64,000 nucleotides of DNA from Alphaproteobacteria bacterium (lineage in GTDB: Bacteria; Pseudomonadota; Alphaproteobacteria; RF32; CAG-239): assembly GCA_017543835.1 (NCBI GenBank), contig JAFYFJ010000020.1, forward strand, positions 36,027 through 100,026, written 5' to 3'. Below the pieces are notes generated by a model. The model did no database searches. It was not told where the DNA came from and saw only the letters and a list, made by a program, of their open reading frames with translations. This document shows positions 54,443 to 63,693 of this stretch, piece after piece. The first letter of the stretch is position 1. Each line of letters opens with the position of its first letter. A program made the translations under genes and the position numbers.

Positions 54443-57400
54443 ATGAGTAAAGAACCGTTAACACATTCGGAAAGATATATCCAAAAAAGTAACAGGGTGA
54501 TTGCAATTTTTGCATTCGTCACTTTGGGTGTGTTTTTCTTCTGTTTGTTGTTGCTCAGCGGAGAAACGGTTGAAGAGGCGCCGCCGGTCGAATTCAGTAA
54601 AGATATCGAAACGGAAGTTGTCAATCTGAAGCAAGCCGAAGAAGATAAAACTTCCGAAATTCAGTTCTTGCGTGAAAACAAGGTGGAGCGCCCGATTACG
54701 ATAACGCCGCAGCAAATCAACTTGGGGCAGATTGTGTTGGGTAACGAAGCGACCGGTGTTTTAACCATCGGCACCAACGGCCATCAGGAAATTCGCGTTT
54801 TGTCGGTAGAATTGGTTGATGCGCCGTTCGACGGATTGAAATATGAATCCAACTGCAAAGAAAAAGATTTGCGCGGTAAGGCAACCTGCGATGTGGTGAT
54901 GAAATGGACACCGACCATTGCCGGAAGCGTGCAGAATAACTTTAAGATTGTGTGGCACGAAACAAATGTCAGCGATAAAGATGCCAAACACGATGAAGTG
55001 ACGGTTATAGGTAATGCGGTGACGCAGTCCGACTGTAATTATTGCGATTCCGGCGGCTCGGATGCGGCAAATGTTGTCGGCTCCAACGGTCAGGTGCGTT
55101 TTGCCGTCGGTCCGGACGGTAAGGTCATCGGCTACATCGGTGAAGACGGCAAGGTTTATGACTTTAACGGTAATGAAATCGGTCGGGTGCGTGATGACGG
55201 TATGATTGTCGATAAAGACGGCAATATTATCGGTGTTGCCGGCAACGGTAAGCTGGTTTTGGATGAAAACGGCAATGTTATCGGCTATGTTGATGAAAAC
55301 GGCGTGGCGCACGATATGGACGGTAATGTTATCGGCACAATGTTGCCGGACGGCACGATTGTAGATGCCAACGGCAATGTCATCGGCAAAGCGGTGGATT
55401 ACGGCGCGGTCTACGACGAAAACGGCAATTTAATCGGAAAAGCCAATGCCGACGGCACGGTAACCGATTTGGAAGGTAATATTATCGGGCATTTGGATAA
55501 AGACGGTAAAGTTGTCGACATCAACGGCAACTCAATTGGTCGGGTGGCCAATGCCGGCGAAGCGGTTGTTGATGAAAACGGCGATGTTCTGGGTATTGTG
55601 TTGCCAAACGGCGATGTTGTTGATGAAAACGGCAATATTGTCGGCCACGTTGACGAAGACGGGAATGTGACCACCAGACAAATCATCGGCAAACGCGGTG
55701 CGGCGGCGCGACTGGTTTATGACGAAAACGGCAATGTTATCGGCTATGTCGGCGAAGACGGCAAAGTTTATGACTTTGACGGTAATGTCATCGGCACGGT
55801 TGATAAAGATGGTAACGTTATTGATAAAAACGGTAATATTATCGGCCATGTCAGCGATGAATACAGAGATTTGGCGCTCGATGAAAACGGGAATGTTATC
55901 GGTTGGATAGATGAAAACGGTATGGTGCACGACGAAAACGGCAATATTATCGGCTATGTCGATAAAGACGGCAACATCATCGGCAATGAGGCGGTCGGCA
56001 GAGTTGTCGGGACGGTCGGCAGAAGGTCGCACTTAGCGGTTGATGAAGACGGCAATGTTATCGGGCATACCGAGGGCAGACAGCTGATTTATGACGAAGA
56101 CGGGAATGTCATCGGTTATGTCGGCGAAGACGGCAAAGCGTATGATATGGACGGGAATGTCATCGGCACGGTTGATGAAAACGGCGTGGTGCGTGACAAA
56201 GACGGCAATATCATCGGTTACAGCGGCGATGCGGCGGTTATCGATGAAAACGGCAATGCTGTCGGACATATTGACGACAAACAACTGATATACGACGAAA
56301 ACGGCAATGTCATCGGTTATGTCGGCGAAGACGGCAAAGCGTATGATATGAACGGTAATGTCATCGGCACGGTTGATGAAAACGGTCTTGTCCGCGATAA
56401 AGACGGCAATGTCATCGGTTATAGCGGCGATGCGGTTGTTGTTGATAAAGACGGCAATGTCATCGGCTATGTCGGCGAAGACGGCAAAGTGTATGATATG
56501 GAAGGTAATGTCATCGGCACGGTTGATGAAAACGGCGTGGTGCGCGATGCTAACGGCAATATTATCGGTTACAGAAGTTCAAAAGTCGCGGTTGATGACA
56601 ACGGCGATATCATCGGCACAATCGATGAAGACGGTAATGTCCGCGATGCCGCCGGCAATATTATCGGACGGCGCGGCAAAGATGGTAAGATTCTGGATAA
56701 AAACGGCCGAGCCATCGGTAAAACCGTAAATATGGGTAAAGTTGCGGTCAACAAAGACGGCAGCGTTATCGGTTTGGCCGACGAGAACGGTATGATTCAC
56801 GATTCTAACGGCAATATTGTCGGTTACAGCGGCTCAAAAGTTGCGGTTGATGAAAATACCGGAAAAGTCATCGGCACAATCGATGCCGACGGTAACGTTC
56901 TCGACGCAAGCGGCAGTATTATTGGCCATGTTGATGAAGACGGTAATGTCGTTGATGCACAAGGTAATATTTTAGGCAAACGCGGCGATATGGGCGATAT
57001 GGTTGTGGATGCTCAAGGTAATGTCATCGGTCGCGTTGATAAAAACGGCGAAGTTGTCGATAAAGACGGCAAAGTAATCGGTAAACGCGGCGCGGCAACC
57101 CGTCTGGTGTATGATGAAAACGGCAATGTTATCGGCTATGTCGGCGAAGACGGTAAGGTATATGATTTTAACGGTAATGTCATCGGCAAAGTAGATGAAA
57201 ACGGTAATGTCATTACGGAAAATCGCTCGGGCGAAGTTGCCGGCTCGGTCGGAAAAAGCGTGCGATTGGCACTCGATGAAGACGGCAATGTCATCGGCTA
57301 TGTCGATGAAGAAAATAATGTTGTCGACTTTGACGGTGGTATAATCGGCCATTTGGATGAAAACGGCAATGCCGTCGATGCCAAAGGACGCGTCATCGGC

Positions 57401-62400: not shown

Positions 62401-63693
62401 CCGGACGGCATTGTCGTGGATAAGAATTATAACGAAATCGGTGTGGCCGAAATGAAACGCACAAATCCGAACGATATGTTTATGCCGGCCAATGCATTCG
62501 GCACGGGCAACCCATACGGTATCGGCGAAAAGCCGTCGAATGTCGGCGCGGGCGGCGGTTACGGACAGGGCGAAAGATATGACCCGGCACGAGCGCAGGC
62601 CTTAAACTTCTTCCAAAAGAAGCGCCGCGATGCCATGCCGAATCAGTTAACCGGCCTCGGCTCGACTTCCGGCACGGCAAATTACAGCCCGTCATCATTT
62701 ACCGGCTATGAAGAAGATGATTGGCCGAACAACACAAATCAGAGAGCTATATCTTCGTGGCGTGTCGATATGAGCGAAATGATACTTGAAGATAAAGGTA
62801 TTCCGGCGGTGTTGGCGCGCTCGGTGTATGCTTCGGAGGGTTTCAGCACCAATATTCCGGTAACGGCCATTGTCGAACGTAATGTTTATGCCGAAGAGGG
62901 CCGTAATGTTATTATTCCGGCGGGTTCGCGTGTTATCGGCCGCATCAGCGGTAGCGGTGCCAACGCGACCAACGGCGGTGCGGTCAAAATCGGTATTGTT
63001 TGGAATCGTTTGATTCGTCCGGACGGGTCGCAGTTTGTATTCTCAAACAATGCGCAAACCGCCGATGCTCAAGGTCGTTCCGGCGCCATCGGTTATCTCG
63101 ACCAACAATTGCTGAAGAAATATTCGTTGCCGCTCGTGACAACGGCATTACAAACGGCGGCAAACTGGTTGATGGCTTCGGGCGGAACCACCACGACCAC
63201 CACCAGCAACGGCACCACGACAACACCGCAAGATGCCCGTTCTGCCGCGATAAGCGACGGTCGAAAAGAGTTTAACGACCGGATGAAAGAAATACTTGAT
63301 GAAATTATTCAGGAAAAAGCTAAAATTCGTGCGGTTACATATATTCCGGCCGGCACGCGTATCATTATTTATCCGAACCAGGATTTGTGGCTCAACAGCA
63401 GGGCGCGTAGCGAGAGAAGCGGAAACAGTCAAAACGCCGGTCGCGGTCCGGGCTTGATTAATGATGCGGATGCCGAGGCACAAGGCGGCGCCGGCGCCGG
63501 CGGTTCGACGGTAACTTATGACGGCGGATATCAGGGTAATATTCAGCCGGCAACTGCGCCGACACGCGCACCGTCATCGGCACCGTCACCGAATGTTAAT
63601 CAAAATCCGGCGGGATATACGCCTCCGGCCTCAAATCAGCCGGTTCCGTCAATTGACAGCGGCGATGCCGGCGATGTTCCGGAGTTGTTATAG
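59455..63693 (+). CDS. virB10: T4SS protein VirB10 with a ~900-aa N-terminal repeat extension and a Pro/Gly-rich tail
   Basis: GGAGGA RBS. Signal-peptide-like start (LLPFEAQA|AE), degenerate GNVIG-type repeats to ~62130, and a TrbI/VirB10 domain at ~62745-63395 (IPAGSRVIGR...VWNRLIRPDGS...YIPAGTRIIIYPNQDLWL). Confidence 0.88.
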   Translation: MMRISQYIRKILLLAALLLPFEAQAAEITAIDFSGNVIGQVISTGLVISPDGANIGMITADSLIVNQSGNVIGGVVPQGIAIGMDNRLLGKIHNDGVVRSLSGRTVGKVLPNGLVLDDGSQVIGAVLYPGLIYSPKGDAVGRLTGGGEYTKLEGQRIGFVSANGYAYRKSGDDYVLDGRLMSSKMVVSIDGKFLGSIAPTGHIIDFSGKSIGKIHANGYAYNGAGQIIGSVIATGYAFDQVGKYIGIVSYNGEVKRGDQVVAYYRADGNLVRSNGDVVGFAVNIAATANDNNGRYLGYVVPGGNIARAGQIVGRVGAKGYIYDTENNKIGEIVKVGPIYDAMARLKGQSMRNGRIISLGGNEIGYTRGQYAYDMNGTLVGGISSDMIAVDDKQKVLSVSNVDASFSTSAQGNRISPFGYVFNSDNKVVGGGFRISAIYGLGGTLYSHISPNGDLYRQATDTQLTSAGILLDKKGFVGSVVNPLYALDFQSQSLGRFANGNLLLDRTGGVSSKIIPGGYGVATKDASSASVSPIDGFGSNKVIALNTGGDLIGYADSNGNVMNLGGNIAGQVIYNDYVVDNNHIVNGKLIPFAPVVNDKCTVIGVVNGKGDIINNRDVIIGRLLPNGQAISDVGSYIGYALFDKGLIDFDGNFVGTVNNGYGVDFNGKQLGCINRNGMITAEDKSLRYGVITPTAVIGFDNKIIGHVLANGQVFDGEDKDLGYMEPTGNVVTKSKKVLGNVMRYQVAYSNDNRFLGMVNHLGEIVNDKGKVIGRVNFDGSVSNQDGNIGYALYDFYVYDENFATYGYLTKDGTVLSMVGSKLGQIDRGFVLDRGRQVVARGNRDYIVRDASNNPVGRLNMDGTVIDFEGQNVGYLAEGGSIRNSDGDEIAVATPYQYYTHIQQEAAPTQEEDSRIGRRHAQIVDAEKPSVEQKENVSETRVKRQKLGNRVVGIALSPDGDYFGDVYDDDVVRDADGNPIGYVRPDGIVVDKNYNEIGVAEMKRTNPNDMFMPANAFGTGNPYGIGEKPSNVGAGGGYGQGERYDPARAQALNFFQKKRRDAMPNQLTGLGSTSGTANYSPSSFTGYEEDDWPNNTNQRAISSWRVDMSEMILEDKGIPAVLARSVYASEGFSTNIPVTAIVERNVYAEEGRNVIIPAGSRVIGRISGSGANATNGGAVKIGIVWNRLIRPDGSQFVFSNNAQTADAQGRSGAIGYLDQQLLKKYSLPLVTTALQTAANWLMASGGTTTTTTSNGTTTTPQDARSAAISDGRKEFNDRMKEILDEIIQEKAKIRAVTYIPAGTRIIIYPNQDLWLNSRARSERSGNSQNAGRGPGLINDADAEAQGGAGAGGSTVTYDGGYQGNIQPATAPTRAPSSAPSPNVNQNPAGYTPPASNQPVPSIDSGDAGDVPELL

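Follow-up and report, generated by a model that had tools for sequence, protein, structure and literature searches.

A VirB10 apparently divided into two giant beta-flower repeat proteins in a type IV secretion locus of gut Alphaproteobacteria

The window analysed here is a stretch of 64,000 nucleotides from contig JAFYFJ010000020.1 of the genome assembly GCA_017543835.1 (Alphaproteobacteria bacterium; RF32; CAG-239). It is chromosomal (tyrS, rplQ, uvrA and murJ are present) and carries a plus-strand type IV secretion system (T4SS) operon in which two giant open reading frames, ORF1 and ORF2, occupy the gene position of virB10, the order being virB9, ORF1, ORF2 and then virB11. VirB10 is the textbook example of a protein that spans both membranes of the Gram-negative envelope, and it is thought to relay an ATP-driven conformational change to the outer-membrane gate. 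A preliminary description of the sequence had proposed that VirB10 is split here into an anchored and a barrel-bearing repeat protein. Both reading frames lie where that description had placed them, and the junction reads GGAGGA, TAG, GA, ATG as it had claimed. The features of the pair are given below, with conservation taken from 64 orthologue pairs.

54443-59452, plus strand: ORF1, 1669 amino acids (aa), putative N-terminal half of VirB10, between virB9 and ORF2
54443-54574, plus strand: cytoplasmic tail (MSKEPLTHSERY...) and single transmembrane anchor, aa 1-44, predicted from hydropathy, AlphaFold2 and an hhalign match to the N-terminus of the short VirB10 P0086
54695-55021, plus strand: ASH/PapD-like immunoglobulin (Ig) domain, aa 85-193, from AlphaFold2 and Foldseek, with a weak Pfam ASH match
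55085-55699, plus strand: first conserved beta-flower hairpins, aa 215-419, gap-free with 51-69% column identity
55700-57292, plus strand: acidic array of near-consensus 17-aa repeats with variable copy number, aa ~420-950, 60-86% gaps among orthologues
57293-59449, plus strand: conserved repeat module of fixed length, aa ~950-1669, ending in EVARNRRN, nearly gap-free
59442-59457, plus strand: junction, with GGAGGA (59442-59447) inside the R-R-N codons, TAG (59450-59452), GA, and ATG at 59455
59455-63693, plus strand: ORF2, 1412 aa, putative C-terminal half of VirB10 (Pfam TrbI)
59455-59529, plus strand: predicted Sec-type signal peptide, aa 1-25, putative cleavage AQA/AEIT (the slash marks the site)
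59530-62154, plus strand: hairpin-repeat module of fixed length, aa 26-900, gap-free
62155-62781, plus strand: variable linker (aa 901-950), about six hairpins (aa 951-1050) and a Gly-rich linker (after aa 1050)
62782-63393, plus strand: TrbI/VirB10 barrel, aa 1110-1313 (Pfam PF03743, 108.8 bits against a cut-off of 35, E 3.9e-31)
63394-63690, plus strand: low-complexity tail ending in a conserved [VI]P-x-L-[FL]

ORF1 has one hydrophobic segment (aa 16-44 by hydropathy). An AlphaFold2 model of its N-terminus, built from 14 sequences, has a helix at aa 8-39, disorder at aa 41-74 and, at aa 85-193, a beta-sandwich with a predicted local distance difference test score (pLDDT) of ~90, in agreement with the short tail, single membrane segment and Ig-like segment described earlier. 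Foldseek matched the sandwich to ASH/PapD-like Ig domains of CEP192, HYDIN and OCRL (E ~1e-6). ORF1 contains no TrbI domain in the Pfam search; within the pair the PF03743 match is limited to the C-terminus of ORF2, which is what the preliminary description had expected of such a profile check. ORF2 begins with the signal-peptide-like sequence (...PFEAQA/AEIT) noted at the outset and has no hydrophobic segment beyond it. The tail and transmembrane segment, which in VirB10 share a chain with the barrel, thus sit on ORF1, as they do in each of the 72 further loci that extend across the junction.

In a sequence search of the PDB, the nearest solved structure to the TrbI domain was ComB10 (2bhv, E 1e-19); Xanthomonas VirB10 (6gyb), TrwE (7o3j) and CagY (8cb2) were also matched. 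The alignment with ComB10 contains an insertion in ORF2, LPLVTTALQTAANWLMASGG-T-rich loop-DARSAAISDGRKEFNDRMKEILDEII, which we take to lie at the expected place of the VirB10 helix-loop-helix antenna. The tail that follows TrbI in ORF2 and its relatives is rich in Pro, Ser and Gln and retains the C-terminal [VI]P-x-L-[FL] motif. In a metagenomic library, the ASH-like domain of ORF1 also matches many unrelated giant proteins, of up to 7259 aa, with as many as 36 copies in tandem, and on this ground it is judged to be a component that large surface or periplasmic proteins of bacteria commonly contain.

An exact search for ORF2 in a contig collection gave no recorded match. Relatives of the system were collected by scanning one genome per GTDB species with a TrbI alignment, which returned 346. 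Nearly all of the best 80 are metagenome-assembled genomes (MAGs) named 'Alphaproteobacteria bacterium' from the rumen and the human, horse and rabbit gut, and we take them to resemble the RF32-type gut lineage. The split layout, virB8-virB9-[anchor and repeat ORF]-[repeat and TrbI ORF], was present in every one of the 72 other loci reaching the junction, which come from MAGs of many independent studies and different hosts, and virB9 was directly 5' of ORF1 in all loci. The details of the junction were read in 62 of the 72; in five others no ATG start is present, and longer spacers or overlaps occur in a few. In most loci ORF1 ends in ...EVA[RK]NRRN-stop with GGAGGA in the R-R-N codons, and the spacer from the ORF1 stop to the ORF2 start is -1, 0, 1, 2, 3 or 5 nucleotides. 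In every ORF2 orthologue a hydrophobic, signal-like N-terminus precedes [AQ]EITA[IV][DN]FNG, and the junction layout is identical in the metagenomic relative L002. The split is a conserved biological feature, and the proposal of an anchored and a barrel-bearing protein held across these loci as well as in the homology of the N-terminal module described below.

The final codons of ORF1 contain the Shine-Dalgarno site of ORF2. Because the ribosome-binding site overlaps the end of the upstream gene, translational coupling is implied, and both chains would be made from one mRNA. A programmed frameshift or readthrough at the junction was considered and rejected: the spacer lengths, and hence the relative frames, differ among loci, which excludes a conserved event of this kind, and a signal peptide follows the start codon.

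The N-terminal module of ORF1 is also found on single-chain VirB10s. The shortest link is P0086, a 579-aa VirB10 in which the tail motif, transmembrane segment and ASH domain are directly followed by TrbI, encoded in a compact locus (virB2, virB4, virB8, virB9, virB10, virB11, SLT and virD4); the ORF1 N-terminal profile matched its aa 4-186 with a probability of 93.6% in hhalign (E 2e-7) and at E 3e-5 in BLASTP. Giant single chains occur as well. The locus L001 has one ORF of 2700 aa with the N-terminal module, repeats and TrbI, followed by virB11, and in L083 the equivalent gene lies in two reading frames across a scaffold gap, again followed by virB11; neither has an internal hydrophobic segment. 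An exhaustive search with the N-terminal module profile recovered eight more cluster representatives of 1498-2363 aa (P0176, P0199, P0210, P0218, P0232, P0243, P0250 and P0277), with the module at the start and TrbI at the end, bringing the single-chain giants to at least ten (1498-2700 aa). Second hydrophobic segments were flagged in P0199, P0218 and P0243. The same search returned split N-terminal halves ending in EVAKNRRN. A further protein, P0001 (842 aa), has an N-terminal ~200 aa fused to ORF2-like sequence, perhaps through a chimeric contig or gene call; we assume that this segment resembles the BspA-type leucine-rich repeats of gut protists.

A tree of the TrbI core built by neighbour joining (229 columns, 100 bootstraps) recovered the split forms as monophyletic in 100 of 100 replicates, and the split, single-chain giant and short forms together grouped apart from ordinary VirB10s in 95 of 100. 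Single-chain giants are placed immediately outside the split clade, with the repeat-less P0086 and the giant P0210 deeper in the tree. Every group that branches outside the split clade is single-chain, so the sequences are most simply explained by a single fission of a virB10 that was already giant. By the N-terminal comparisons above, ORF1 is the N-terminal half of a VirB10, both halves being homologous to single-chain VirB10s.

Most of each protein consists of repeats. A period of 17 aa, made up of a 10-residue and a 7-residue half, dominates in ORF1 aa 215-1010, ORF1 aa 1010-1669 and ORF2 aa 27-900; by length this corresponds to ~85 units in ORF1 and ~55 in ORF2. The shared unit of 17-20 aa seen earlier is thus present in both proteins, and the ~2,300 repeat residues first counted become ~2,400 when computed. 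The repeat had been taken for a family with no name, a view that does not stand: by its Pfam matches it is a beta-flower repeat (PF21784 and PF21785, clan CL0395), also matched by DUF3659. Bflower_2 (PF21785) scored 371.8 bits in ORF1 (E 3.7e-113) and 165.2 bits in ORF2 (E 5.4e-49) against a cut-off of 38, and Bflower (PF21784) 213 and 48.1 bits, respectively, against a cut-off of 25; the repeat signal thus greatly exceeds chance expectation. The pattern D/N-x-x-G-x-x-[IVLAM]-G, which agrees with the beta-flower tip motif [DNEQ]xxG, is present in 56 copies in ORF1 and 22 in ORF2. The beta-flower fold was described by Durairaj et al. (2023) from AlphaFold models only, in proteins of ~96 aa with 4-, 5- or 6-fold hairpin symmetry, and had neither an assigned function nor a solved structure (PMC10584680).

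No pentapeptide or CagY-repeat family was matched in the Pfam scan, in line with the original statement that the repeat is of neither DotG nor CagY type. RHS_repeat (PF05593) gave a weak summed score (E 2.6e-21) with no individual stretch passing, and Pfam detected no Rhs core, plug or C-terminal toxin domain. The AlphaFold2 model of ORF2 aa 27-446 (21 sequences) has a pLDDT of 89.5, a predicted template modelling score of 0.87 and 45 short strands, indicating a confident, globally defined all-beta structure for the ORF2 repeat module, whose hairpins may form separate flowers, a rod or solenoid, or a continuous sheet. Foldseek searches of the PDB and BFVD with the repeat model returned Rhs, teneurin and Tc-toxin shells, choline-binding and CROP repeats and viral fibres (E 5.6e-10 to 7e-4), which bears out the likeness to YD/RHS and choline-binding hairpins suggested in the preliminary description; these matches are local only, with template modelling scores of at most 0.16 (0.10 for Rhs) and root-mean-square deviations above 20 Å. 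Searching the PDB by sequence with 800 aa of the repeat region gave nothing significant. The predicted hairpin is familiar, and the overall shape of the model is without a solved counterpart.

The orthologues divide the repeats into fixed and variable parts. ORF1 aa 1-420 are conserved, aa ~420-950 vary in copy number (total ORF1 length 1099-1814 aa), and aa ~950-1669 are fixed in length with 42-81% column identity that peaks at the C-terminus. The variable array is strongly acidic (101 D+E versus 48 K+R). ORF2 aa 27-900 have zero length variation and 34-70% identity, followed by the variable linker. The ORF2 repeats had been called a more degenerate version of those in ORF1; their kinship is upheld, and their fixed length and position-by-position conservation in the orthologues speak against decay. 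Relative to the closest relative, L003, the acidic array differs by one 17-aa unit and is 53-68% identical, versus 92-100% for both modules that flank the junction (93-100% for the one in ORF1), parts of which match or exceed the barrel in conservation. In other subclades, L002 for example, a second near-consensus array lies just before TrbI and ORF2 reaches 2366 aa. Because closely related species mostly share the same ORF lengths, the data support variation of copy number between species and not by rapid phase variation, and a hypervariable behaviour like that of CagY was not supported. The possibility that the ORF2 N-terminal module is a duplicate of the ORF1 C-terminal module was also dismissed, as only ~25% general repeat similarity was found, at many offsets.

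The combined results suggest a model, held with moderate confidence, in which ORF1 and ORF2 are two halves of one VirB10 that was cut once within its repeats and is rejoined non-covalently across the envelope. The VirB10 of this lineage carries an ASH/PapD-like Ig domain behind its transmembrane anchor, and long arrays of 17-aa beta-flower units between the Ig domain and TrbI give single chains of 1,500-2,700 aa. A large gut and rumen clade descends from an ancestor in which this gene was cut once, inside the repeat region. ORF1 has kept the tail, anchor, Ig domain and ~85 hairpins, whereas ORF2 has kept ~55 hairpins and the barrel and has gained a predicted cleavable signal peptide. ORF1 is predicted to insert as a signal-anchor protein, and ORF2 to be exported by Sec and join VirB7 and VirB9 in the outer-membrane complex. 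ORF1 aa ~950-1669 may then bind ORF2 aa 26-900 non-covalently and so restore the bridge between inner and outer membrane, with the variable acidic array possibly serving as an adjustable spacer or as an interaction or contact surface. Two chains would permit different copy numbers at each membrane.

Several points weigh against this model. We infer the binding of ORF1 to ORF2 from the sequences, and both expression and signal-peptide cleavage are predicted. Profiles of the 250-aa flanks of the junction match several places in the single-chain giants with similar scores, so that no unique collinear site of the cut emerged. L001 and L083 each have one scaffold gap inside near-identical repeats, for which reason the eight library proteins are the cleaner evidence for single chains; these in turn come as library sequences without genomic context and may contain masked X residues. 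Finally, in what is probably a 13- to 14-fold assembly, the ~140 hairpins of each pair might not fit in the periplasm if they are extended, and part of the repeat structure could lie outside it.

The most mundane rival, that one giant virB10 was wrongly broken by a frameshift or by misassembly of the repeats, is effectively refuted. Repeat-rich genes are error-prone, the repeats of L001, L002 and L083 contain scaffold gaps, and in L045 (3118-6812) ORF1 lies in two overlapping frames, an additional break that may be a frameshift error or a pseudogene. The stop codon, Shine-Dalgarno site, start codon and signal peptide nevertheless recur in 72 independently assembled loci. At the DNA level, tandem identity is confined to 56042-56617, within the acidic array, and the remaining repeat DNA is well diverged, so collapse or expansion during assembly is unlikely and the arrays appear old. 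The preliminary description had counted routine fusion of a well-known repeat family to VirB10 among the things that would speak against it; within this lineage a named family is indeed routinely attached to VirB10, in many relatives on a single chain. That ORF1 is an unrelated anchored repeat protein, such as an adhesin or envelope scaffold, recruited beside a VirB10 that lost its anchor is highly improbable: VirB10 N-termini are generally poorly conserved and many unrelated giant multi-domain proteins have an ASH-like domain, yet the whole module of tail motif, transmembrane segment and ASH domain aligns with a single-chain VirB10 N-terminus, eight proteins ending in TrbI start with it, and ORF1 invariably lies between virB9 and ORF2.

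Two further readings concern the role of the halves or of their repeats. The halves might work apart: ORF2 alone would build the outer-membrane complex, the covalent energy-sensing link would be lost, and ORF1 might serve, among other roles, as a spacer in the periplasm, as a binder of peptidoglycan or lipid, or as a collar of the inner-membrane complex. We regard this as possible, if doubtful; the ORF1-ORF2 interface on which the joined model depends is putative, whereas the two genes, their order and their translational coupling are retained throughout and the modules next to the junction are among the best conserved parts of both proteins. It is less likely still that the arrays, above all the acidic one, are partly displayed at the surface, where they would touch host or target cells, and vary so as to alter function or escape immunity, as has been proposed for the CagY repeats. 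The changing copy number and fast sequence turnover of ORF1 aa 420-950, the second variable array before TrbI in other subclades, the animal-gut habitat of the organisms and the variable repeat regions of CagY and DotG (PMC6761968) are consistent with such a role. The variable array, however, belongs to the half anchored in the inner membrane and lies near the anchor in sequence, near relatives are usually equal in length, which argues against rapid variation, and the T4SS itself would be the sole export route to the surface.

The arrangement proposed here, two halves rejoined across the envelope, differs from canonical VirB10/TrbI proteins (A. tumefaciens VirB10, R388 TrwE, Xanthomonas VirB10 and H. 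pylori ComB10) in placing anchor and barrel on two polypeptides, the barrel half with a cleavable signal peptide, and in having an ASH Ig domain and ~2,400 repeat residues in place of a Pro-rich linker. The C-terminal TrbI barrel and the position between virB9 and virB11 are shared, and the tail and single transmembrane segment are present, on ORF1. Giant repeat-bearing VirB10 homologues are already known, namely CagY and DotG, both single chains. CagY of the H. pylori Cag T4SS has a large recombining repeat region and a C-terminal VirB10 domain (PMC9371333, PMC6761968); in the PDB sequence search its fragment was matched by the VirB10 domain only, and the Cag-specific partners of that system have no counterpart in this window. 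DotG/IcmE of the Legionella Dot/Icm system, an integral membrane protein proposed to form a channel across both membranes, likewise combines a TrbI C-terminus with a variable number of repeats (PMC6761968), but these are pentapeptide repeats, and Dot/Icm is of type IVB while the system described here is VirB-type (IVA). DotF/IcmG, a separate bitopic partner of DotG, offers a loose functional analogy to ORF1. To our knowledge, DotF is not a detached N-terminus of DotG.

Closest of all are the single-chain beta-flower VirB10s (L001, L083, P0176, P0232 and others), which have the same N-terminal module, repeat family, TrbI subfamily and flanking genes, on a single polypeptide of 1,498-2,700 aa that lacks the stop/start junction. 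The beta-flower proteins described so far are ~96-aa closed, shallow barrels of 8, 10 or 12 strands, some of them lipoproteins or with a C-terminal helix (PMC10584680), in contrast to the arrays of ~85 and ~55 hairpins found here within a secretion subunit. RHS/YD, teneurin, choline-binding and CROP repeats share the short beta-hairpins and differ in global shape, the period here being 17 aa. Full-text literature searches turned up neither a split VirB10 nor a T4SS with beta-flower or DUF3659 repeats, and no account of the T4SS of these gut Alphaproteobacteria. Both the split beta-flower VirB10 and the single-chain giants appear undescribed in the literature searched, as the preliminary description had supposed for the architecture.

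The operon around the pair comprises, on the plus strand, a VirB2-like gene, virB4, six ORFs with signal peptides, virB8, a 62-aa lipoprotein gene, a second virB8, virB9, ORF1, ORF2 and the start of virB11. The genes flanking the pair are as follows.

50975-51730, plus strand: virB8, copy 1 (Pfam VirB8, E 2.7e-12)
51875-52063, plus strand: probable VirB7-like lipoprotein, 62 aa, lipobox LSAC (LILSAC), an unlisted ORF between both virB8 genes
52073-52843, plus strand: virB8, copy 2 (Pfam VirB8, E 1.3e-23)
52840-54420, plus strand: virB9/CagX homologue, 526 aa (Pfam CagX, E 1e-11)
63704-64000, plus strand: 5' part of virB11, cut by the end of the window, its translation matching the VirB11 of L002

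ORFs of 54-62 aa are found at the position of the small lipoprotein gene in L001, L002, L083 and L084. The six consecutive ORFs between virB4 and virB8 (39892-50931, plus strand; 311, 218, 576, 492, 441 and 1619 aa) all have signal-peptide-like N-termini and no credible Pfam or NCBIfam match, just scattered ones far below cut-off. No polytopic VirB6/TrbL-like protein was detected in the window; L002 has a weak TrbL match 3' of virB11. Immediately 5' of the T4SS operon lies a type IVb-pilus-like cluster (24724-34915, minus strand, and 23127-24104, plus strand) with T2SSF, a T2SSE ATPase, a PilO/PAP-type protein, a secretin and a TcpQ-like protein, and a separate PilT-like ATPase is nearby.

The carriers of the system are common uncultured bacteria of the human, ruminant, horse and rabbit gut with a chromosomal T4SS. 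Automatic annotation under-reports it, because gene callers often miss or mis-call beta-flower virB10 genes: in L001 (4877-9607) and L083 (4351-9150) the giant virB10 is uncalled in the source annotation and spurious antisense ORFs are called inside the repeats, and many database 'VirB10' entries of the clade are fragments beginning within the repeats.

The beta-flower fold, known from predicted structures of small proteins, gains a concrete cellular setting in these loci. More tentatively, and with rather less confidence than we would need to prefer it, the pair may form a bipartite VirB10 in which a non-covalent joint of two giant beta-flower scaffolds takes the place of the covalent bridge held to be a hallmark of VirB10 and builds an expanded T4SS core, with differing subunit numbers at each membrane and an acidic array that tunes spacing or target contact; this would be a first role for the beta-flower, and 13-14 copies of the paired scaffolds would amount to several megadaltons. 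The one-chain, two-membrane topology of VirB10 is broken here in a stable and widespread manner that is of interest to the T4SS field, and a VirB10 that has stayed in two parts in at least 72 species-level genomes provides a natural test of the need for a covalent link between the two membranes.

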